Made by a program: the position numbers and the translations under genes. A stretch of DNA of 64,000 nucleotides, taken from an uncultured Spirochaetales bacterium. Lineage in GTDB: Bacteria > Spirochaetota > GWE2-31-10 > CAYYKD01. Shown here one piece after another: positions 49,438 to 61,838 of the stretch (positions are counted from its first letter, which is position 1; the number at the start of each line of letters is the position of its first letter). The notes under the pieces are model-generated. The model did not search any database. It was given only the letters and a program-made list of their open reading frames with translations, and had not been told where the DNA came from. The stretch covers positions 65,136 to 129,135 of the forward strand of contig CAYYKD010000001.1 of NCBI GenBank assembly GCA_964471825.1, given 5' to 3'.

Positions 49438-52344
49438 ATGAAAAATTCACTGGTTTTATTTGTTATTTTATCATCTATGGTAAATATTTTTACACAGTCA
49501 TCAACTATTTCTATATTTGATTCTGCTAAGGATGACTACAAGAGAGGGCAATACTCATTTGCAGTAAGCGGATTTAACCGATACATTAAGCTCTCAAACG
49601 ATAACGACAAAATACCGGAGGCACATTTTTACCTTGGGCTTTCTCATTATTTTCTTAAAAACTACCCGCTTGCACTTTACAACTTAAACTCAATACAGAG
49701 AGTAAACAACCTCTCTCCCTATAAGGCACTCTCATTTTTCTGGAAAGGTCTGATATATCAGAATAGCGGCAATTTTGCTGCAGCTGAGTCTGAGTTTAAT
49801 AATTTTATTACCCTACTGCCAAACTCCGATCTGATCCCGAGAGCACTGTTTGCTTCTGCAAACAGTAGAGTAGAACAGGACAACCTTGATGGTGCATTAA
49901 CAGCACTTGAGACACTCCTTTCAAAATATCCAACCTCAGAGCGGTTTGAGGATGCTGTAATTCTAAGATCCTATATTCTTATTAAAAAGAACAAACTTAT
50001 TGAGGCAAAGAAATTTCTGTTAAAAACACACGCCAATATTAAGTCAGACAGAATATTATCCTATCTAGGTGAGATATGTTTTGAGCTTGGCGACTATGAT
50101 GAATCAATGGATTTTTACAAGACTATTGAACGGGACTTCTCCTCATCTAAACTTCTAGACATTGCATTGCTGAGGCTATCACAGATAGAGAGAATGAAAG
50201 GTAACTACCCGGAAGCTACAGAATATATTCTAAGATTAAACAATGAATTTCCACAGACTCTATATAGTTTGGAGGCGGCTGTAGATCTTGCACTTATAGA
50301 GTTTGCAAAGAATAACATCACTGACTCACTGGTTCTATTCAATCAGGTTCTAAAGACAACAAATCAAAGATTACTTCAAAAAGGGATGCCAAAACCGGAG
50401 AGAGATAAATTAAGCGAGATAAAAAATTATTCAACTCTTTATATTGCAGAGATTAATCTAAAACGAAACGACACCAATGCTGCAATTAATTCATTAAATG
50501 AGGTGTTAAGGTCAGGATATTTTAAGGAAAATGCATTGCTCAAACTTCTTGAAGTCTACATAACTAATAAGGAATATGTAAAAGCAAGCGAACTCGCTTC
50601 AAAACACTCTCAATCTTTTAATGAAAATAATTATTTTAACTTCTATAGAGCAAGACTTGAATATGAAAAGGCTGATTATAAACAGGCAATTAAACTTCTG
50701 GAGCTTGTAACAATTGATGATGACAACAGAGAAGCTATAATTTCATTAAAGACCGCTCTCTACACGATAGCAGGCGATCCAAAAAAAGCTCTTGAGCTTT
50801 TAAGACAGACTACTAATGAAACACCTATTCAATACAAGGCTCGATATATTAATAGAATCATGAAAGTTGCCCTGGGTCTGAAGGATTATTCAACAATTAA
50901 TTCGTACTATGATGAGTTTCAGACTATGATAAAATTCAATCCGGTAGATACCAGACTAGTTCTACAACTGGATACAGATTTTATTGCAGCTCTCTCATTT
51001 ATGCAACAGTTAAGATTTAAGGAGTCACAGGGCCTACTTCAGTCAATAATTGCCTATAGAGATAATAAAAGCCTGACAAACTTATCGGAGACTTTCAATC
51101 TATCCAATTTCTATCTTGGATGGGTCCTATACAAACAAATGGACTATATCAATGCATCCAGATACTTTACCCTTGCGGCCAACAGTGATATAGATCTCTC
51201 TATTAAGGAAGAATCCTCATTTATGGATGGCTATTCCTACTTCTCTTCCGGTGATTACAGGATTGCAAGGGACAAGTTTATAAGGATAACCACCTCTACC
51301 AAAAATCCTGATATCATTGTTAAGGCAACATTCTACGCTGCAAAATGTTCAGACAACCTCTCGGATCGAACTACTTCTGTAAAATACTACAATCAAATTT
51401 TTAACAACTACCCAAAAAGTGAATATGCCGATGACACTCTCTTTGAACTTATTAAAATATCTATAGAAAAAAAAGATTCTGTTAGCTTAGCCGACAAAAT
51501 CTCCACATTTGAGACAACCTATAAGGAATCTCCCCTTCTATTAAATGCAATAGTAACAATTGCTGATTTCTATTATAAAAACAATCAATTTTCTGAAGCA
51601 TTTTCATACTATACTAAATATATCTTACTCTTATCGGACCCTACCGATCCCGATCAGGACTTTGCCTATTATTTTACGGCAGATTCCGCAATTAAAAATA
51701 CAGACTTCACCTCAGCATCTGACTATTCATCAAGACTCATATCTACATTTCAAGAGTCGCCATATCTTGAAAACACATTACTGATAAAGATAAAGGCTGC
51801 AGCAGCAACCGGCGACTTTAACGGTGAAATTGAAGCTATTAAAAAGATTGAAGTCAAATATAGCGATAAATATACAAAAACATTTGAACGAAGAAAAATG
51901 GCACTAGAATTAATCTCTAAGGGGACACCTGAGGCGGATGCTGTCAGGCAAGTTACATTTAACTTAGGCACAGAACAGGAAAAATTAGCTGTCATTAAAT
52001 TCTATCTAAACTCCGGTGACACCGGAACAGGACTTAAATTAGCTGATAAGCTATACAATACTTCCAAAAGTCAATTTGCGGCAGAGGCTCTACTGTTAAC
52101 AGCAAACATTAAATTATCAATTGATGAAAAGGTTTCTGCTGAGGCATTATACTTAAAACTAATAACTGAGTATGCAGGGGCTGAACTGGTCATGGCTGAG
52201 GCTCTATACAAACTCGCTTTTATCTATCACTCCAATGGTAAAACACAACCGGCAATAAAACTCCTCGATACTATTATCAGTCGCTATAGAGAAACCGAGT
52301 GGGGGGCAAGAGCCGTTTCACTAAAAGAGAGGGTGCAGAATTGA
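49438..52344 (+). CDS. Secreted TPR-repeat protein (968 aa)
   Basis: Signal peptide MKNSLVLFVILSSMVNIFTQSS. Many 34-aa TPR-like repeats (W-LG-Y..A...F...Y P pattern). Divergent from the fla operon. Confidence 0.7.
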   Translation: MKNSLVLFVILSSMVNIFTQSSTISIFDSAKDDYKRGQYSFAVSGFNRYIKLSNDNDKIPEAHFYLGLSHYFLKNYPLALYNLNSIQRVNNLSPYKALSFFWKGLIYQNSGNFAAAESEFNNFITLLPNSDLIPRALFASANSRVEQDNLDGALTALETLLSKYPTSERFEDAVILRSYILIKKNKLIEAKKFLLKTHANIKSDRILSYLGEICFELGDYDESMDFYKTIERDFSSSKLLDIALLRLSQIERMKGNYPEATEYILRLNNEFPQTLYSLEAAVDLALIEFAKNNITDSLVLFNQVLKTTNQRLLQKGMPKPERDKLSEIKNYSTLYIAEINLKRNDTNAAINSLNEVLRSGYFKENALLKLLEVYITNKEYVKASELASKHSQSFNENNYFNFYRARLEYEKADYKQAIKLLELVTIDDDNREAIISLKTALYTIAGDPKKALELLRQTTNETPIQYKARYINRIMKVALGLKDYSTINSYYDEFQTMIKFNPVDTRLVLQLDTDFIAALSFMQQLRFKESQGLLQSIIAYRDNKSLTNLSETFNLSNFYLGWVLYKQMDYINASRYFTLAANSDIDLSIKEESSFMDGYSYFSSGDYRIARDKFIRITTSTKNPDIIVKATFYAAKCSDNLSDRTTSVKYYNQIFNNYPKSEYADDTLFELIKISIEKKDSVSLADKISTFETTYKESPLLLNAIVTIADFYYKNNQFSEAFSYYTKYILLLSDPTDPDQDFAYYFTADSAIKNTDFTSASDYSSRLISTFQESPYLENTLLIKIKAAAATGDFNGEIEAIKKIEVKYSDKYTKTFERRKMALELISKGTPEADAVRQVTFNLGTEQEKLAVIKFYLNSGDTGTGLKLADKLYNTSKSQFAAEALLLTANIKLSIDEKVSAEALYLKLITEYAGAELVMAEALYKLAFIYHSNGKTQPAIKLLDTIISRYRETEWGARAVSLKERVQN

Positions 52345-53963
52345 AAAAACACTTAATATTATCATTATGTCTGTTGTCATTGTCATTTATGTATTCTGAT
52401 GAGATAGAATTACCCGAGCTAAATCTAAACCTCATTGACAATAAAACATTTAACATTGAGATCCTTAACGATCAAGCCGCGTTTCCTGTGTTAAAGTATT
52501 CTATCCTGCCAAGACCATCTTTTAGTGAGGAGATTAAACTTGACCTCGAAAAAATCCTTCCAGACAAGTCTGAAACAGTAGAATCTCAGAAACCTGTTAA
52601 CGCCCAATTAAATCTGGGATATGGGCTAAACAATGAGCTTCTAGTCTCATTTGCACTGTTTTTATCAGATATGAATCCAAAAATCTCACTTAACTACATC
52701 CGAAAAACCTATGAAAGAAACCGGATTGACAGACCTGATGACACTTCAAGTGCCTCGTCAATTGACCATGTCTCAGTCGGTCTGATTTCAAACTACAAAC
52801 AGTTCTCAGTATTTGGTAAACTGGACTTCTTCAATAAAAACTACGGTCTACAGGGGCTTTCTGCTGCGTATAATGAACAAACCAAACGGCTTATAAACCT
52901 TGATATATCTCCATCATTTAAGTTTAACAACCGTAACGAGCTTACCTATAAATTAGAGACAGATATAATAATGATTGAGAATAGTCCAAATGAATCATTC
53001 AAATCTCTCAATCAGTTTACCGTCTTTGTCAGAAACGACTTCCTATTTACTCAGGTTTTTACCGATAATCAGGTCTTGCAGGCAACACTTGGCTACAACT
53101 TTAACTACATGAACAACTCCGAAAACGATCGTAATTATTATTTCTATGGAAATATTTCAGATATATTTTACAATGAGATCAAAACAACCCTTTCATATCA
53201 AACAATAATAAAAGATGCATTTCTTATACAGGGATTATTGGATATTCGTTTTTTATTTAGAGATACAACTTTCCATTGGTATATAAATCCATTTGTAAAA
53301 TTAGAATACAACTTACATGAATACTTTTCCTGCTCAGTTGAGGGTGGATCGCTGATCAATGAACGGCCGGATGAGAATTTCATTTTAAAAAACGATTATT
53401 CTTTACTGTCAACAAAAGTTTTGCCTGGCTATAGATGGTTTGCAGACACCGGTCTGACCGCGTCTGTTCTTGAATGGTTTAAGATCACAACCAACTTTGA
53501 GTACGCATTTAATATGAGCGGCACAAATCTCACAATCATCGACCCCAATCAACGCCTTGTTTCACATATAAACAGAGAGTTTCATGAGTTAAATATAAAT
53601 GCAGGATTATTCTTCACGGTTAAGGGCATATTAAATATTAAGGCGTCCTGGGAACATCGATTCCTTGAGGTGCCTGCATACACCGGCAGAGACAGATTAA
53701 GTGCCGAAATCAGGTGTACATTCAGCAATGTCGGGATTGATTTTTTTGTAGATGGAAAGTTTGATTTTGTAGTTCGAGATTATGCCGGTATTTTGATGGG
53801 CAATAAATATGAAGTAGGAACTGGTTTTGACTTTAGTAAAAATGAAGCGTTTGCTATTGGATTTAAATTTTCTAACATCGCATTTCAACAAGAACAAAGA
53901 ACAATTGCCGGTTACTTTGACCGGGGCATAAATGGTATAATTTATATTAAAATCGGATTCTAA
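52341..53963 (+). CDS. Putative outer-membrane beta-barrel protein, translationally coupled to the TPR gene
   Basis: Likely TTG start at 52341 overlapping the TPR stop (aatTGAaaa), with a GAGGG RBS. N-terminal signal-like LKKHLILSLCLLSLSF. Alternating beta-pattern. C-terminal IYIKIGF ends in Phe as in OMP beta-barrels. The track ORF starts at 52299 in the same frame. Confidence 0.5.
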   Translation: MKKHLILSLCLLSLSFMYSDEIELPELNLNLIDNKTFNIEILNDQAAFPVLKYSILPRPSFSEEIKLDLEKILPDKSETVESQKPVNAQLNLGYGLNNELLVSFALFLSDMNPKISLNYIRKTYERNRIDRPDDTSSASSIDHVSVGLISNYKQFSVFGKLDFFNKNYGLQGLSAAYNEQTKRLINLDISPSFKFNNRNELTYKLETDIIMIENSPNESFKSLNQFTVFVRNDFLFTQVFTDNQVLQATLGYNFNYMNNSENDRNYYFYGNISDIFYNEIKTTLSYQTIIKDAFLIQGLLDIRFLFRDTTFHWYINPFVKLEYNLHEYFSCSVEGGSLINERPDENFILKNDYSLLSTKVLPGYRWFADTGLTASVLEWFKITTNFEYAFNMSGTNLTIIDPNQRLVSHINREFHELNINAGLFFTVKGILNIKASWEHRFLEVPAYTGRDRLSAEIRCTFSNVGIDFFVDGKFDFVVRDYAGILMGNKYEVGTGFDFSKNEAFAIGFKFSNIAFQQEQRTIAGYFDRGINGIIYIKIGF

Positions 53964-54037: not shown

Positions 54038-54850
54038 TTAATAATATGTATATTTATAAAGAGACTTTGTATACAAAGAGCCGTCGCCTCTGTATTTCGC
54101 CTCTTCAATCAAATTCCTATTAGCATCATACTTATAGATATTTTTGCTATTTAACGAGCCATCAGTTCTGAAACTTGCATCTTCTACCTTATTTCCTATT
54201 GCATCATACTTGTAAATCTCTTTTGAAAATATTGAACCGTCATTTTGATATTTAATCTTTTCAATTTTATATCCTTTAATATCATACTTATAGGCCTCTC
54301 TGGAAAAGAATGAACCTTTGGAGCCGGTTACAACTTCTTCAATCATATTTCTGTTATCATCATACTTATATGTGTTTTTACTTTTCAAATAATCGTCGTA
54401 TCGATATTTGGCTTCCTCAATCATATTTCCACCGGCATCATATGTAAAAGTGGATTTATACCACAAAGCACCATCTGGGCCATGGGTAGCCTTATCACTC
54501 ATTTTACCACTATCATCATACCTATATATAATTTTAGATTCCATAGAACCATCTGATCGAAACATCCCCTTTTCAATAATATTTCCTTTAGCATCATACT
54601 TATAAATTCTTTTTCCCTCTAAGGAGTCGTCGGCTTCATAGAATCCCTCTTCAATCAAATTTCCACTTTGGTCATATTTATATGAGGTTTTCCAATTCAA
54701 CACTTCTACATTTTTTCCAGAATCAAACACTATATCATATTTAAACTCAGTTTTTTCTTTTACTTTAAGCGTGTCTGTGTTTACCTGCTGACTGGATAGC
54801 ACTGTCAAAAATGCAAACAAAAAACAAAACAAAAATAACAATCTCTTCAT
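54038..54850 (-). CDS. Secreted MORN-variant / YwqK-like repeat protein (~8 tandem ~23-aa repeats YKYDxxGNxIEExxYxxDGS)
   Basis: 270 aa. Signal peptide MKRLLFLFCFLFAFLTVLS. Repeats such as KRIYKYDAKGNIIEKGMFRSDGS, SKIIYRYDDSGKMSDKATHGPDGA, KEIYKYDAIGNKVEDASFRTDGS. Confidence 0.6.
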   Translation of the reverse strand: MKRLLFLFCFLFAFLTVLSSQQVNTDTLKVKEKTEFKYDIVFDSGKNVEVLNWKTSYKYDQSGNLIEEGFYEADDSLEGKRIYKYDAKGNIIEKGMFRSDGSMESKIIYRYDDSGKMSDKATHGPDGALWYKSTFTYDAGGNMIEEAKYRYDDYLKSKNTYKYDDNRNMIEEVVTGSKGSFFSREAYKYDIKGYKIEKIKYQNDGSIFSKEIYKYDAIGNKVEDASFRTDGSLNSKNIYKYDANRNLIEEAKYRGDGSLYTKSLYKYTYY

Positions 54851-54937
54851 ATAAACTTCCTTTAATATAGTATTAAATAATTTAGTATTAAATCACTTCT
54901 TTAATATCATATCATTTTAGAATATTTGTCAAATACA

Positions 54938-54983
54938 TAGTTAGAATTTTTTAGTTAGAATTTTTTAATAGTTAGAATTTTTT
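54938..54983. repeat. Tandem AT-rich repeat (AGTTAGAATTTTTT x3) in the promoter region of the YwqK-like gene, immediately downstream of the Toprim-protein gene
   Basis: tagttagaatttttt at 54938-54952, agttagaatttttt at 54953-54966, aatagttagaatttttt at 54967-54983. Followed by gtataat on the plus strand. Confidence 0.6.
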
Positions 54984-55054: not shown

Positions 55055-57325
55055 TCATTTAAAAATATTTTCAAAGACAGCTCTTACAAATTGTACAGGT
55101 ATCAGCTCCTGTTCAAGACGATTCTTCTGAGGATAGCTGTTTAATTTCTCAAATAAGTCCAGTTCATCTGAGGTTAAATTTTCCGGTTGTGCGGCTTTGA
55201 CAACTTCACCATCCGTAACAAACTCATAGTGTCTTTCACATGTAACTCTATCCATCATAATGCTCTCCATCTGCGGAAAGTTCCCTCTCAAACCGGATAA
55301 GATCATAAATCCATGAGGATCTATATCACCCCAATAAATAATCCGCTTATCTCTAAACCACTCGGCATCCCTAATTAGTCCGACCCCAAACCCTTTCCCA
55401 AAGATAGCAAGTGTGTTTTCTATTTGCGGCATAGTAAGAAAGTTATAGATATTTGTATAGCTTGTTTTATTTTCAAGGATTATAATTCTCTTTACCGGTA
55501 ATTTCAATTTATTAAAATCGGAGACCTTTATCGATATGTCGCTTATCCCCGAAAAATATTTTAGTGCAATCTCGTTATCAAGGATATTTAACCTTATTAA
55601 TGGTTCATTGAACTTAAGGCCATACCTTTTTTCAAATACCCTTTCATTTGTCAAAGTTGAGTCCGAAATGATATCAAGGAATTCTTTCACTAGGTTCATG
55701 TTGCGTTCAATAAACTTAGTATCAACCTCTATCGGCAACTCTCTTATATACAGCTGCGGCATTGGATTTGATTTAAAGTATTTTAAAACAGAAAATATTT
55801 TTTCTTTAATCTCAGATATATAACAAATATCAGCTATATTTACGGCAAGTATTTTAACAATATCAGTTATATGCGACTCATCGAGGTTGTTCTCAAGTTG
55901 CTCATGAAGGGTTTTTAGTTTATCAGAGCTGTCCTCAATCTTTTTCTTCTCAACCTTATGAACTTCCAATTCCTTGGCGTAGAGTTCCCAATTGATTTCA
56001 TCAAAACTATCAAAACTCTTTAGGAAGAAAAGATTTCGCTCTTTCTCCTCACAGGCCGATTTATACTGATTTGATAGATTCAGCTTATCTTTTTGCACCA
56101 ATATTTCTTCTCTGCAACGAGATATCCTCTCTTCATATGTACTAATCTTCTTTCTGTTATCCCAACCGAGAATGTAACTGCGCCTGTCATCCTTCTCATG
56201 TCTGACACCGGCTGTCTTAATAAGCCCCGATTTAGTTACAGCAAAAGGGTATTTATTAAACTCATCAGCACTTTCACAACATGCAAATCCAAATCGTGAA
56301 TTTATCTCATTATATATCCAGTTATAGAAAGGGGTGTCCTCTTTGATTGCAAGCCTATTTATAACTGACATCTTATTACCATCTATTTGTATCTTTGGGG
56401 ATTTAGAATCCTCGATTCTGTAAAATACAACTCTACTCTTTAAATCAGTTTTATTGATAAAGTCGTTTATACGATCGTACAACTTTTCCGGCACCAACAT
56501 ACTCAGACCGAATGAACGCAAAAGCCTTTCAATTGCCGGCTCCCAGTCCTCAAACCCCTCTTTTACCTTCACCAATTCAGCAACAAACGGGATCTCAATC
56601 TCATTGACACCGGTACCATCAGCGATAATTTTTCTGATTTTACTATTCTCTAACGGTATCTGGCTATTTCGAGACATTAGGTGTTTAAGCTCATCCTCGT
56701 CATTATAAAGCCTTTCATTGAGATCGCGGATAACAATCCCTGTTTGTATTATGCCCTCATTAACCTCGGTTATCTTTATGGACAATTCCGACCTTAAACT
56801 CTCAATATTTAGAATATTTCTGTAGAATAACTCCTCTGAACATTCACTCTGTAGTTCAAGAGCCTTAATAATTGCCTTGTAGTTATCATATTTTCTAAGT
56901 CTATCTTGCTTCTTCTCAGAGCAAACTTTAATCTGATAATCTATCTCCATTAGCCGTTTCGAGTCCTTATCATTAGCTATCGCTTTTATCAGTGATGTCT
57001 TATCATTATCTAACCGTTCAATCAGCTCCCGGCTCTCTTGAAGTTTGTTTGTAAAGACTCCGTAGTTTGCAGTGAGTTCATTTGTTTTTTTCTTGTAAAG
57101 TTCAAGCCGGATTTTATTAAAATACAACAATAGCCCGTCAGAATATCTCTTATTATCCTCGATTTTTTGAATCAATCTTCCATACTCATCTGAGGAATTA
57201 ACCAATGGCTCAAGCGTCTTCAACTGTTCCCTTGCTCTCTCAACAGACTCATGTGCTCGGTTTAAATTATCAAAGTTCTTCAATAGAAGTGTGATTTCAT
57301 CCCGAATCTCCTCTTTCTCAAGCAT
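55055..57325 (-). CDS. Coiled-coil protein with C-terminal Toprim domain (TopoVI-A/Spo11/JetD-MksG DUF2220-like), no ATPase motifs
   Basis: 756 aa. C-terminal ~190 aa has KRIIILENKTSYTNI (conserved Glu) and DKRIIYWGDIDPHGFMIL (DxD metal-binding motif) in JetD/TopoVI-A-like spacing. N-terminal ~560 aa is helical/coiled-coil with an SMC-arm-like segment FAELVKVKEGFEDWEPAIERLLRSFGLSMLVPE. No Walker A or Walker B. Confidence 0.6.
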   Translation of the reverse strand: MLEKEEIRDEITLLLKNFDNLNRAHESVERAREQLKTLEPLVNSSDEYGRLIQKIEDNKRYSDGLLLYFNKIRLELYKKKTNELTANYGVFTNKLQESRELIERLDNDKTSLIKAIANDKDSKRLMEIDYQIKVCSEKKQDRLRKYDNYKAIIKALELQSECSEELFYRNILNIESLRSELSIKITEVNEGIIQTGIVIRDLNERLYNDEDELKHLMSRNSQIPLENSKIRKIIADGTGVNEIEIPFVAELVKVKEGFEDWEPAIERLLRSFGLSMLVPEKLYDRINDFINKTDLKSRVVFYRIEDSKSPKIQIDGNKMSVINRLAIKEDTPFYNWIYNEINSRFGFACCESADEFNKYPFAVTKSGLIKTAGVRHEKDDRRSYILGWDNRKKISTYEERISRCREEILVQKDKLNLSNQYKSACEEKERNLFFLKSFDSFDEINWELYAKELEVHKVEKKKIEDSSDKLKTLHEQLENNLDESHITDIVKILAVNIADICYISEIKEKIFSVLKYFKSNPMPQLYIRELPIEVDTKFIERNMNLVKEFLDIISDSTLTNERVFEKRYGLKFNEPLIRLNILDNEIALKYFSGISDISIKVSDFNKLKLPVKRIIILENKTSYTNIYNFLTMPQIENTLAIFGKGFGVGLIRDAEWFRDKRIIYWGDIDPHGFMILSGLRGNFPQMESIMMDRVTCERHYEFVTDGEVVKAAQPENLTSDELDLFEKLNSYPQKNRLEQELIPVQFVRAVFENIFK

Positions 57326-57413
57326 ATTTTCCCTGACAAAGTCTGTAAAATTGCCAATCTGTTTTAAGGAAACAGTATGAAAAAATAGTTCTATCCCTTT
57401 TTAGAGCGATGTT

Positions 57414-58727
57414 CTAATATTCGATCAACTCTAACAAACCTTTTTTTACAGGGTAACTATTAATAAGTTCTCCCAGAGCGATCTGTTCTTTTTGTGTAAG
57501 AGCTTTTTCGATATTCGCAATCAATTCACCCTTATCAACGAATATTTGCCCATATACAAACGCCGCATCAAAGTCTTCAACTTCACTTGCAATCTCTTTT
57601 ATATTAAAGACAACCTTTTCAGGTACTCTATAGAATAGTCTTGAAACAACCGATTCTATCTCAGGCTTATCATTTATCTGTACAAATTTCCTTTCATTAG
57701 CGAGGTTTTGGTTTTTCGTTAGCTTTATTGCCCTCGACTCGATCTCTTTAATGATATCAAGCACCCTTCTGTTGCTATCAATTGCCCGCTCATCAATAAA
57801 CCTTGCCAACTGCTCGATCAGGATAAATATTGTTTTATTAACCTTACTGCCGGATTCTGTCAAACTATATTTTAATCGCCTAATAAAAGTATCATCAGAC
57901 AATCCTTTAACCTCGTCCATTTCTATAAGTTGTCTGATAAGATAATCAAGCTCATCCAGCCTGGTCTGTGATAGAAGAAGCTCCCAGAATGAACGGAAAC
58001 TCCGCCCCTGATCTGTTTCCCATATAGACCCCTGCATATTAAAAAAGTTGTCAACAACATCCCCTTTAGCGACAGAAACATCAGAGAGTTTTACCCTTAT
58101 CATTCTATCAAGATCTCGGAAGTTATACTCTACCTGCCTAAAATCACCTATCAATCTCCTTGCTGTATCGGTCAACTCAAAGAATCTTTCCTTAATTTGA
58201 GTATTATCAAGCGTCTCTATAACCCCGGCATCTATCTTGTCAATTTCTGCCTGTAATTTTAATTTCTCTTCATGCAGCTCCTTTAGACGGACTTTAGGAT
58301 CACTGGAACTTTTATACACAATCTCCCGCAATAGATCAAAGATCTTAATCATACGGGACTCAGTGCCTACAAAATCCCTCTCCTTAAGATCATCAATCCA
58401 CTCAATTGCCTTCTCCATGGCCGGTGTCATTTCATACAGCGGCTCATCCCCTGATTCTCCATAATACTTTCTTAAGATACCGTCATCCGCCCACTGAGTA
58501 AGATAGGATTCCGGTGACAATGGATACGACTCGTCGCTGTAGTTCTGATTGAGATAGTATATGTAATCTGTGAGTTTAACGGTAATATCTTTATGTTGTA
58601 TTACAGAACGGTTATCGTTCTTAAAAACGCCATATAGAAACCCCGCAACAAATGGGAGAGTCTCTTTGCTTAATATCTTAAGAGTTGTATTATTATTTTT
58701 GTAGTATCGTATATCCTCAAAGTTCAT
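57414..58727 (-). CDS. Helical protein, partner of the Toprim protein; N-terminal region resembles my recollection of the JetA/DUF3375 (MksF kleisin-like) family
   Basis: 437 aa. No nucleotide-binding motifs. YLTQWADDGILRKYYGESGDEPLYEMTPAMEKAIEWIDDL and DFRQVEYNFRDLDRMIR resemble DUF3375-type blocks from memory. 88-bp gap to the downstream Toprim gene on the same strand. Confidence 0.4.
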   Translation of the reverse strand: MNFEDIRYYKNNNTTLKILSKETLPFVAGFLYGVFKNDNRSVIQHKDITVKLTDYIYYLNQNYSDESYPLSPESYLTQWADDGILRKYYGESGDEPLYEMTPAMEKAIEWIDDLKERDFVGTESRMIKIFDLLREIVYKSSSDPKVRLKELHEEKLKLQAEIDKIDAGVIETLDNTQIKERFFELTDTARRLIGDFRQVEYNFRDLDRMIRVKLSDVSVAKGDVVDNFFNMQGSIWETDQGRSFRSFWELLLSQTRLDELDYLIRQLIEMDEVKGLSDDTFIRRLKYSLTESGSKVNKTIFILIEQLARFIDERAIDSNRRVLDIIKEIESRAIKLTKNQNLANERKFVQINDKPEIESVVSRLFYRVPEKVVFNIKEIASEVEDFDAAFVYGQIFVDKGELIANIEKALTQKEQIALGELINSYPVKKGLLELIEY

Positions 58728-58911
58728 AAATCAGTAATAATATATTTTTTCATAAATATCAATAAATCCTAATCATCTTTCTTATTCATCTATTTGTCGA
58801 ATTACTCACATCACCGGCTATAGTGCGGATTTTCTATAAACACAAAAAAAAACAATTGTTTATTTTTATTTATTATTATATAAATCTTAATAATTTTTTC
58901 GGGAGAGAATA

Positions 58912-60183
58912 ATGCTTGACATAAAATTTATTAAAGATAATGCAGAGACAGTTAAAGATAATATTGCAAAGCGATTTGTAAAGGCCGATGTAGACAAACT
59001 TCTTGAGATCTACTCACAGAGAAATGACATAATCACTAAGGCTGATGCTCTAAGGCAGAAAAGAAATGAGAATGCCGCATCGCTAAAATCTCAAAATGAC
59101 TACCAAAAAAGAGTTTCACTTATCGAAGAGGGTAAAAGGCTAAAAGATGAGCTATATACCTATGAAGATAAAGAGATCAAAATAAATAAACTTTTTATCG
59201 AAGAGATGTATAAAATTCCCAATATGACCCACCCTGACACGCCTATTGGACCTGAAGAAAAGGACAGTAAGGAATTAAGAAAAGTTGGAGCAATCCCTGA
59301 GTTTGACTTTGAAGTTAAAGATCACACTGTTCTTGGTAAGGAACTTGATATTATTGATTTTGAATCAGGTGCAAAAGTATCAGGACAGAAATTCTATTAT
59401 CTAAAAAATGAAGGTGCATTATTAGAGTTGGCACTTATTCAGTTTGCTATAGGTCTCCTAGTGTCTAAAGGATTTACCCCGGTTTTAACACCCGATCTTG
59501 CAAGAGAGTCTATCCTTGAGGGGATTGGCTTTAACCCGCGAGGAAATGAAACTAATGTCTATATGGTAGAAAATACTGATCTCTGTCTTGTGGGTACAGC
59601 AGAGATAACACTTGGCGGAATGTATTCAAACACAGTTATTGATAGAGAAAAGCTGCCTATAAAGATGGTTGGACTAAGCCATTGTTTTAGAACCGAGGCA
59701 GGAGCAGCAGGCAAAGCACAGAAAGGACTCTATAGAGTTCATCAGTTTAGTAAGGTTGAAATGTTTGCAATTTCATTACCTGAGGACGCAGCAGGGATTC
59801 ATGAAGAACTTAGAGAGATCGAAGAGGAGATTGTGTCTAAACTTGGTATACCATATAGAGTACTTGACATAGCGTCAGGTGATCTCGGAAATCCAGCCTA
59901 CAAGAAATACGATCTTGAAGCATGGATGCCGGGCAAAGGTGAATATGGCGAGATTACATCAACTTCTAACTGTACAGATTACCAATCAAGAAGACTTAAT
60001 GTAAAATACAAGACTGAGAACGGCAAGGCTGACTACACCAGCATGTTAAATGGCACTGCAGTTGCGATACCACGAATGATTATTTCTATTATTGAGAATT
60101 TTCAGACTAAAGATGGTGAAGTTATAATCCCTGAAGCACTACACCCGTATATGTTTGGAATAAAGAAGATAAGCAAAAAGTAA
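58912..60183 (+). CDS. serS: Seryl-tRNA synthetase
   Basis: 423 aa. N-terminal coiled-coil arm. Class II motifs (GLYRVHQFSKVEMF, TSTSNCTDYQSRRLN, NGTAVAIPR). Confidence 0.9.
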   Translation: MLDIKFIKDNAETVKDNIAKRFVKADVDKLLEIYSQRNDIITKADALRQKRNENAASLKSQNDYQKRVSLIEEGKRLKDELYTYEDKEIKINKLFIEEMYKIPNMTHPDTPIGPEEKDSKELRKVGAIPEFDFEVKDHTVLGKELDIIDFESGAKVSGQKFYYLKNEGALLELALIQFAIGLLVSKGFTPVLTPDLARESILEGIGFNPRGNETNVYMVENTDLCLVGTAEITLGGMYSNTVIDREKLPIKMVGLSHCFRTEAGAAGKAQKGLYRVHQFSKVEMFAISLPEDAAGIHEELREIEEEIVSKLGIPYRVLDIASGDLGNPAYKKYDLEAWMPGKGEYGEITSTSNCTDYQSRRLNVKYKTENGKADYTSMLNGTAVAIPRMIISIIENFQTKDGEVIIPEALHPYMFGIKKISKK

Positions 60184-60267: not shown

Positions 60268-60798
60268 ATGAGGGATTGCGAACAGAATTATGCTCCTACC
60301 AAATTTTATGCTCTTGAAGAAACTGATCAGTATAGAAGATATGTTGTACTCTGTTCAGAAATTACCGTAATGAAGAAGTTACTATTAAGGATGCTTGATT
60401 TTTTTAATGCAGATCTTGTAGTTATGATAAAAACAGTTGTAGCTTACGATGAAATATCCAAGGAATACGACTGGGATTATTACACAGGAGATTCTAACAG
60501 AGATCGTGTACTTGACTCAATAAATATGTTTGAGGATTATATTTTTCATGATCCCTCTCACCAATTACTGGTAAGAGACAAGAGAAGCCATGACTATTTT
60601 ACATTTGATGAACATGGCACATTATTTATTTACACAGATAGAAATGTTGAATATATTCTAGAACAGCATAGCATCCCTTTTGAAAATAATCACAATCTAA
60701 AGTGGGAATGCGGTCAAATAAAATATGTGATGGGTTCACTATGTGAAAACTTTGAAAAACTAAAAAATTATTTAGGTCTATCGATTAGAAAAACTTAG
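60268..60798 (+). CDS. Hypothetical cytoplasmic protein (176 aa), no recognisable domain
   Basis: ORF with GGGAGGG RBS (60253-60259). Aromatic/acidic composition. Followed by a strong hairpin terminator. Confidence 0.45.
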   Translation: MRDCEQNYAPTKFYALEETDQYRRYVVLCSEITVMKKLLLRMLDFFNADLVVMIKTVVAYDEISKEYDWDYYTGDSNRDRVLDSINMFEDYIFHDPSHQLLVRDKRSHDYFTFDEHGTLFIYTDRNVEYILEQHSIPFENNHNLKWECGQIKYVMGSLCENFEKLKNYLGLSIRKT

Positions 60799-61001: not shown

Positions 61002-61838
61002 ATGATTAAAGTAAACGATAAGGACATCTCCTTTAAGGAATTTGAGTTGTCCTGCAGAGATGCAATGATGAGAAGCGGTGTTCAAACATTAAGCAGGGAA
61101 GATAAGTTGGGTGTTGCCAATAGACTAATTGATGCAGTACTTCTTCTTGAGGAAGCCAAAAAAAGCTCTGTCGTAGTCCCATCTGACGATGTAAACTGGG
61201 CTATCGAAAAAATTAAATCTCAATTTAAAACCAAGGATGAATTTGAGAATGCAATCAAACAAACTAACAATACCGAAGAGTCTCTTAGGGAAAAAGTAAG
61301 AGACGATATGCTCCTAAGAAGGTATATTGATGAAACCTATACATCAACAATAACGATTGAGGACGAAGCTGTATCAAACTATTTTGCTGATAACAAGGAC
61401 GCTTTTCACAAAGAAGAAACAGTAAAAGCAAACCACATCCTTTTTTCTCCTGACGACAAGTCAAATGCAGAATCTGTTCTAAAAGAGATCACTGATGGAG
61501 CTGACTTTGAGGAGATGGCTAAGAAACATTCTAAATGTCCCAGCGGGGCAAGAGGCGGTAGTCTTGGAGAGTTTGGTAGAGGCCGAATGGTCAAGCCTTT
61601 TGAGGATGCAGCTTTTGCCTGCGGAGTCAATGAAGTCACAAATCTGATTGAAACTCAATTCGGATGGCACATTATTAAGGTAACCGATAAGTCTGAGCCG
61701 GAGGAAACTGAGTTTGATACTGTAAAAGACGATATCAGAAACTACCTTCTAAGCGAACAACTGGGTGCATTATTAGATAAGAAGGTCTCTGACCTAAGAT
61801 CTATCAGTAACATTAATATTGACGAATCGATGCTCTAG
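61002..61838 (+). CDS. Parvulin-type peptidyl-prolyl cis-trans isomerase (PpiC/PrsA/SurA-like)
   Basis: Parvulin domain ANHILFSPDD...GGSLGEFGRGRMVKPFEDAAFA...GWHIIKV. Start is probably the ATG at 61002 after the GGAGG RBS (track ORF begins at 60960). No obvious signal peptide. Confidence 0.75.
   Translation: MIKVNDKDISFKEFELSCRDAMMRSGVQTLSREDKLGVANRLIDAVLLLEEAKKSSVVVPSDDVNWAIEKIKSQFKTKDEFENAIKQTNNTEESLREKVRDDMLLRRYIDETYTSTITIEDEAVSNYFADNKDAFHKEETVKANHILFSPDDKSNAESVLKEITDGADFEEMAKKHSKCPSGARGGSLGEFGRGRMVKPFEDAAFACGVNEVTNLIETQFGWHIIKVTDKSEPEETEFDTVKDDIRNYLLSEQLGALLDKKVSDLRSISNINIDESML

Follow-up and report, generated by a model that had tools for sequence, protein, structure and literature searches.

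Does a pair of adjacent genes beside serS in an uncultured Spirochaetales bacterium represent a new minimal form of the Wadjet system, or is it what remains of an ordinary one? The question is raised by the window analysed here, a stretch of 64,000 nucleotides (64 kb) of contig CAYYKD010000001.1. It carries, on the minus strand, an open reading frame (ORF) of 437 amino acids (aa) at 57414-58727, followed in the same orientation by an ORF of 756 aa at 55055-57325, with 88 bp between them (57326-57413). A preliminary description of the window gave these coordinates correctly and saw in the pair a relative of JetA beside a Toprim protein, with the look of a small defence island, and hence either a novel minimal system or a reduced Wadjet. 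We propose that a canonical type I Wadjet operon, with the genes jetA-jetB-jetC-jetD, once stood here and that the locus (55055-58727, minus strand) is its relic, left after two internal deletions and one nonsense mutation; we put the probability of this reading at roughly 0.88.

The resemblance of the 437-aa product to JetA had been noticed in its N-terminal third, and it extends over the whole protein. The product matches Pfam PF11855 (DUF3375) at profile positions 5-434 of 474, with 361.9 bits against a cutoff of 28.6 (E = 7e-108), and the PADLOC model JetA1 at positions 1-437 of 480 (8e-141). Direct sequence matches in the Protein Data Bank (PDB) are to the JetA chains of 8dk1 (8dk1_A, 3.4e-18) and 8q72, and no NCBIfam model matches either of the two ORFs. 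The product is 65% identical to an intact JetA of 478 aa (P0122) and shorter than JetA homologues, which have 475-500 aa. The kleisin is accordingly not of full length: it lacks ~41 aa at its end, which belong to the C-terminal winged-helix domain through which JetA binds the JetC head. The tblastn alignment to intact JetA continues across the stop codon (GLLELIEY*NIA against GLLELLEYYNIA), and the JetA homology extends beyond the TAG to 57405, or to 57384 in the tblastn extension. Reassignment of the stop codon was considered as the cause of this TAG and rejected: TAG terminates 19 of the 38 long ORFs in the window, where it is a regular stop, and the jetA stop is therefore genuine. A scan of genome contigs with JetA returned a single locus, from Phycisphaeraceae and 35% identical.

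The partner, first taken for a stand-alone Toprim protein, is, judged by its sequence, an in-frame deletion fusion of the middle of JetC and the C-terminal part of JetD. JetC, which had been reported as absent, supplies about 500 residues, the N-terminal two thirds of this protein: residues 1-483 match PADLOC JetC1 at profile positions 232-718 of 1123 (6.8e-119), the JetC-derived part is 52% identical to an intact JetC (P0002), and its PDB matches are the JetC chains 8dk2_C and 8as8_A. What is retained is the N-terminal arm helix, the hinge and ~90 aa of the returning arm helix; the ATPase head is gone. Pfam finds neither AAA_29 nor SbcC_Walker_B in the 756-aa ORF, whereas every intact JetC match carries both, and in the closest intact JetC the Walker A (aa 48), signature (aa 1005) and Walker B (aa 1042) motifs all lie inside the deleted parts. 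An AlphaFold2 model of the JetC-derived piece (58-sequence alignment; mean predicted local distance difference test score, pLDDT, 87.4) shows arm helices at aa 7-238 (~230 aa), a mixed alpha/beta hinge at ~240-390 and a return helix of only ~90 residues, so that ~140 residues of the arm helix would be without an antiparallel partner. Modelling of the whole 756-aa chimera from its single sequence was unusable (pLDDT 33.8).

The remainder of the chimera is JetD, of which the C-terminal two thirds are present. Residues ~503-755 match PADLOC JetD1 at profile positions 135-380 of 382 (3.1e-89); Pfam JetD_C is covered at positions 1-177 of 179 (3.7e-44), and DUF3322 only at 146-190 of 190, its last 45 positions. 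The JetD N-terminal arm and CAP region (aCAP), JetD aa 1-~127, is gone. The acidic residues of the Toprim domain are all kept: ILENK (E at aa 618), GDIDP (aa 666-670) and LEQE (aa 737-740) align with E248, D290/D292 and E362/E364 of E. coli JetD (8q72_M, JetD(E248A)), and DTKF at aa 535-538 is likewise preserved. No full-length relative of the fusion other than itself was found among 5.8 billion clustered proteins, nor did an exhaustive HMMER search of 1.84 billion representatives return one; in both protein sets, the best further matches are normal JetC or JetD.

The breakpoints were placed by aligning to the window, with tblastn, the proteins of the closest intact operon (locus L004; JetA 478, JetB 198, JetC 1117 and JetD 393 aa). 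JetA aa 1-447 align at 58727-57384 with 65% identity, through the TAG; JetC aa 202-716 align at 57400-55883 with 52% identity, in a frame that differs from that of JetA; and JetD aa 128-388 align at 55852-55073 with 58% identity, in the frame of the JetC piece. JetB, whose absence had been noted before, has no tblastn match anywhere in the window. The retained pieces are colinear and co-oriented with the jetA-jetB-jetC-jetD order of L004, and the locus can be laid out as follows:

57414-58727, minus strand: jetA remnant ORF, 437 aa, corresponding to JetA aa 1-437 of ~478.
57414-57416, minus strand: premature TAG stop in place of Tyr438 (TAT in the closest intact JetA), from tblastn and DNA comparison.
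57390-57404, minus strand: deletion junction 1 (best guess 57401-57404), where the end of the JetA homology meets the start of the JetC homology at 57400.
57326-57400, minus strand: JetC-derived codons (JetC aa 202-226, KGIELFFHTVSLKQIGNFTDFVREN) upstream of the first start of the 756-aa ORF, from tblastn and reading of the sequence.
55883-57325, minus strand: JetC-derived part of the 756-aa ORF (chimera aa 1-481, JetC aa 227-716), from PADLOC, identity, PDB and AlphaFold2.
55853-55882, minus strand: deletion junction 2, in frame, between the end of the JetC alignment at 55883 and the start of the JetD alignment at 55852.
55055-55852, minus strand: JetD-derived part (chimera aa 492-756, JetD aa 128-393), with the end of the CAP region and the complete Toprim domain.

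Junction 1 brings JetA codon ~441 and JetC codon ~202 together in different frames; the corresponding deletion of ~1.28 kb took the end of JetA, the entire jetB gene and, with Walker A, JetC aa 1-201. At junction 2, JetC codon ~716 is joined in frame to JetD codon ~118-128; this deletion, of ~1.58 kb, took JetC aa 717-1117 and JetD aa 1-~127, and with them most of the returning arm helix, the C-terminal half of the head (signature motif and Walker B) and the JetD arm. Junction 2 corresponds to chimera aa 482-491 (DESHITDIVK), a segment of ambiguous origin, and is spanned by the sequence …LENNLDESHITDIVKILAV…. The operon has been reduced from ~6.55 kb to 3.67 kb (55055-58727), a loss of 2.9 kb or 44% of its length. 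There are no frameshifts within the retained jetA, jetC and jetD pieces, and there are no repeats at the junctions. The JetC-derived codons at 57326-57400 share the frame of the 756-aa ORF and come straight after a TAA at 57401-57403. The ATG of this ORF is the internal Met227 of JetC, the JetC homology begins 25 codons upstream of it, and no clear ribosome-binding site precedes it in the 88-bp gap.

On this reading, the first deletion stripped the ancestral jetA-jetB-jetC-jetD operon of the kleisin end, of the whole KITE subunit JetB and of the N-terminal half of the JetC ATPase head with its Walker A. With the second, the other head motifs (signature and Walker B) were lost, together with most of the returning arm and the arm by which JetD docks on JetC. 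What is left consists of two ORFs: a JetA without its C-terminal end, and a fusion of the JetC arm and hinge with the JetD Toprim domain, for which an internal JetC methionine is the only possible start. Their products would very probably be unable to extrude DNA loops or to cleave plasmids in a controlled way, because the ATPase, JetB and the JetD docking arm are missing, and the defence function would be lost. Published work has established that plasmid restriction needs all four Jet subunits (10.1101/2022.10.04.510915; PMC10586767; four-gene definition in PMC9252829), that the ATPase-dead JetC(E1022Q) and JetD(E248A) each abolish restriction (10.1101/2022.10.04.510915; PMC10586767), and that the aCAP region of JetD docks on the JetC head, which is also bound by the JetA C-terminus (10.1101/2023.11.03.565488). 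Measured against the four-gene PADLOC definition of type I Wadjet, the locus is incomplete, JetB being absent from both locus and window, and the retained JetC aa 202-716 do not make up an SMC ABC ATPase.

In comparison with the type I Wadjet systems of E. coli GF4-3 and P. aeruginosa PA14 (PDB 8as8, 8dk2, 8q72 and 7til), the pieces are homologous and colinear, their best PADLOC models are JetA1, JetC1 and JetD1, they have PDB matches and the Toprim E/DxD/ExE residues are conserved. The locus differs in having no JetB, a headless JetC with only a third of the returning arm, a JetD without aa 1-~127, a JetA cut at aa 437, and JetC and JetD in one ORF. The condensins MukBEF and MksBEF have their SMC-kleisin-KITE ancestry in common with JetABC, but they are without a Toprim subunit, whereas the locus best matches Wadjet-specific models and has a JetD part. 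Pseudogenised Wadjet operons are already documented: a frameshifted jetC (PMC9252829), a spontaneous jetABCD deletion in Clostridium cellulovorans and an EptC mutation in M. smegmatis (PMC12287153). As in these cases, the locus is inactivated and its remaining genes are recognisable; instead of a frameshift or the loss of the whole operon, there are here two internal deletions and an in-frame JetC-JetD fusion. The locus is most probably an ordinary dead type I Wadjet and not a new minimal system. Spontaneous Wadjet losses open cells to plasmids (PMC12287153), and the loss may have been neutral, or favoured by permitting plasmid uptake. A Tajima-type relative-rate test with two outgroup operons counted, for window and sister respectively, 27 and 20 unique changes in JetA, 17 and 22 in JetC, and 12 and 11 in JetD. 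Since there are neither frameshifts nor an excess of substitutions, the inactivation would fit a recent event.

The neighbourhood does not have the character of a defence island that was first ascribed to it. The flanking genes are housekeeping genes: serS, a peptidyl-prolyl isomerase (PPIase) gene, HtrA, a tetratricopeptide repeat (TPR) protein and flagellar hook genes. The composition is unremarkable, with a GC (guanine plus cytosine) content of 0.367 for the remnant and 0.358 for the window. As had been described, serS (58912-60183, plus strand) diverges upstream of the jetA remnant, and a short tandem repeat is present ahead of the YD/RHS-repeat gene (270 aa; 54038-54850, minus strand) downstream of the 756-aa ORF. 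Between the jetA remnant and serS lies one further feature:

58728-58911, no strand: divergent intergenic region jetA/serS, the presumed site of the old operon promoter (putative).

The scan of the window found promoter-like sites at background frequency (17 against 17.2 expected), and the terminator scan likewise gave background counts.

The sequence of the locus is corroborated by other assemblies, all of them from one sample (JGI 3300020048; ENA ERZ27262924). Over 15.7 kb, the megahit assembly L007, made independently, matches the window at 100% identity, and the JGI scaffold L006 departs from the window sequence only in a run of N at 61477-61486, well away from the locus. Three assemblies agree, and the deletions are therefore not an artefact of one assembler. 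The JGI run of N lies in the PPIase gene and coincides with the end of the ENA contig (61476); this spot is hard to assemble, and the window is continuous over it.

The closest intact jetABCD operon (L004/L003; JGI 3300020048 contig Ga0207193_1002480; NCBI GCA_964608985.1) belongs to a sister spirochaete from the same metagenome. The two share 65% identity in JetA, 52% in the JetC middle and 58% in the C-terminal part of JetD, with similar GC content and a tetranucleotide correlation of 0.88, but the operon of the sister is complete (478/198/1117/393 aa) and is not beside serS. In this nearest relative found (GCA_964608985.1), SerS is 83% identical and the order serS-PPIase-HtrA is kept, the genes upstream of serS are unrelated and include no jet genes, and the intact jetABCD lies elsewhere. 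The nearest relative having no jet genes at this place, and the fusion being unique, the jetA/fusion pair is neither a core element of the lineage nor a recurring cassette. Its lack of conservation in the closest relative fits accessory content, as the preliminary description had supposed, and is silent on function. The intact operon (L002:988-7536, also in L003-L005) directly adjoins a gene for a Y1 transposase of IS200/IS605 type (L002:106-522). Since it stands beside this transposase gene in an unrelated context, the operon or its surroundings must have moved since the lineages split. A third type I Wadjet operon of the same metagenome (L009:1-15552) is situated in a true defence island, with an MmeI-like restriction-modification protein fused to a Y1 transposase domain, a DUF4365 protein, and HicB-like and RelE toxin-antitoxin genes. 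L009 was considered as a second Wadjet locus of the window genome and rejected, as its tetranucleotide correlation of 0.40 indicates a different organism.

The exhaustive HMMER search, which could detect only in-frame JetC-JetD fusions, returned three further proteins that match both halves of the window fusion:

P0390, 679 aa, at L013:6502-10040: JetC profile 213-610 and JetD profile 132-377.
P0401, 712 aa, at L016:7693-10139 (also in L017 and L018): JetC profile 67-563 and JetD profile 190-380.
P0364, 1025 aa, at L014:33-3110 (also in L015): JetC profile 296-1027 and JetD profile 116-385.

In all three, as in the window, the JetC middle is in frame with the Toprim part of JetD; they differ from the window fusion in being only ~30% identical to it, in their breakpoints, and in their unrelated genomic contexts and organisms. 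In L013, JetA is of full length, and the fusion after it opens with about 26 residues joined to JetC ~200; these residues look like a JetB N-terminus, and tblastn gives no JetB match in the L013 fusion. In L016-L018, the junction is between a JetA stub of 102 aa (JetA aa ~11-97) and JetC aa 59. In L013 and L016-L018, whose upstream context is known, jetB and the Walker A region of JetC are gone, as in the window. Breakpoints differ in every fusion: JetC ends at 563, 610, 716 or 1027 and starts at 59, ~200 or 202, and JetD starts at positions from ~110 to ~190. They interrupt folded domains as well as conserved motifs; RHEKDDR and the helix of the signature motif are two examples. The JetA beside the fusions has its full length once, is truncated once and is reduced once to a stub of 102 aa, and the metagenomic relatives of P0401 (46-68% identity) all come from intact jetABCD operons. 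The pieces of the window locus being 52-65% identical to an intact operon, and only ~30% to the other fusions, the fusion events are independent. It can also be reasoned that a JetC middle flanked by a 5' piece and a 3' piece is what two kilobase-scale deletions between essential flanks would leave in nearly every case. The three other fusions point to parallel relics, and their recurrence is one aspect that this reading does not fully explain.

Several observations weigh against a relic. Both ORFs are long and uninterrupted at 36% GC, the second deletion is in frame and the Toprim catalytic residues are all intact. The absence of rate acceleration equally fits continued constraint. The layout of JetA or a fragment of it, no JetB and a headless JetC-JetD fusion is met in at least two unrelated lineages, and the recurrence of fusions exceeds what naive random decay suggests. 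Some of this would suit a functional, newly evolved minimal system in which a truncated kleisin works with a coiled-coil Toprim nuclease that dimerises through its hinge and has lost the autoinhibitory arm and CAP; the system would do without ATP-driven loop extrusion, serving either as a nuclease released from regulation or as a decoy by which other SMC complexes are poisoned. The intact ORFs and conserved acidic residues, the relative-rate test and the headless fusions near JetA or its fragment in L013 and L016-L018 speak for it, as does the report that JetD alone cuts DNA at high concentration, its CAP domains being thought to be autoinhibitory (PMC10586767). We nevertheless consider it very improbable. 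The fusion breakpoints vary from case to case and run through folded domains and motifs, and the state of JetA varies with them, from full length to a stub. Where this was checked, the relatives of a fusion have intact operons, and the closest homologues of JetA, JetC and JetD here come from an intact operon as well. The 88-bp gap, the internal-Met start and the want of a clear ribosome-binding site are ill suited to a working gene pair, as is the unpartnered arm helix of the AlphaFold2 model. A conserved family is likewise not in evidence, the self-match being the only one at full coverage among the 5.8e9 and 1.84e9 proteins. The minimal system proposed in the preliminary description is not supported, the fusion being unique in the databases and all SMC loop-extrusion features being deleted; of its other suggestion, a reduced Wadjet, the Wadjet origin and the reduction hold, and the reduction has come about by decay and not by design.

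The recurrence invites a related view, that headless JetC-JetD fusions, which at least three lineages have acquired independently while losing jetB and the Walker A region, are a recurrent end-state maintained by selection. This seems to us highly improbable; were it true, they would be hinge-dimerised nucleases without the autoinhibitory arm, or dominant-negative decoys against SMC-based immunity, or else toxic partial Wadjet complexes would be forcing a stereotyped second deletion. The 64 kb inspected belong to a contig of at least 207 kb and the same metagenome holds other Wadjet loci, so that it is conceivable, if extremely unlikely, that the remnant works with partners in trans, either orphan jetB and jetC copies or a second Wadjet locus elsewhere in the genome. 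However, the window contains no further jet homology, L004 belongs to the metagenome-assembled genome of the sister, as its SerS shows, and L009 to another organism. JetA would, moreover, still be without part of its head-binding C-terminal domain and JetD without its head-docking arm. Finally, the origin of the sequence in a metagenome assembly, with a related Wadjet operon in the same sample, could suggest that the deletions are assembly artefacts and that the true genome carries an intact operon. To this we give almost no credence: the sequence recurs in L007 without a difference and in L006 with none but the distant run of N, the co-occurring operon, at 52-65% protein identity, is too divergent for co-assembly, the junctions carry no repeats, and the collection holds no protein more than 65% identical to the missing parts. 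The relic of a type I Wadjet operon therefore remains the preferred reading.

Three further features of the surroundings may be recorded. At 54937-54983, a unit of 14-17 bp (AAAAATTCTAACTA when read on the minus strand) occurs three times in tandem and adjoins the upstream side of a promoter-like TTGACA-18 nt-GATATT (54932-54903, minus strand), which stands before the YD/RHS-repeat gene, whose 270-aa product is a lipoprotein; the array could be an operator or an array of binding sites. Between serS and the SurA-like PPIase gene lies a 176-aa ORF (60268-60798, plus strand) with no Pfam or NCBIfam match. This ORF is missing from the sister genome (L010), where 13 bp separate serS from the PPIase gene, and is therefore a lineage-specific insertion, on the other side of serS from the jet remnant. 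A 554-aa ORF without a family match (52299-53963, plus strand), which starts with GTG and shares its first 46 bp with the end of the 968-aa TPR gene, looks like a beta-barrel outer-membrane protein by its sequence. A search of metagenome contigs with this protein found no syntenic relatives, and it missed the source contig too.

As a gene find, the locus is minor, being the decayed copy of a well-characterised system. Automatic annotation would label it as a DUF3375 protein plus a JetD-like Toprim protein, and defence-system finders would list it as "Wadjet_other" or as a candidate new system; the breakpoint map makes a pseudogenised jetABCD the proper annotation. It nonetheless offers a clean natural case of the dismantling of a defence operon by kilobase-scale internal deletions between essential flanks, and the dismantled copy is found in a population whose close relative retains an intact operon. 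The independent JetC-JetD fusions suggest that a survey of Wadjet relics could reveal a preferred path of loss.

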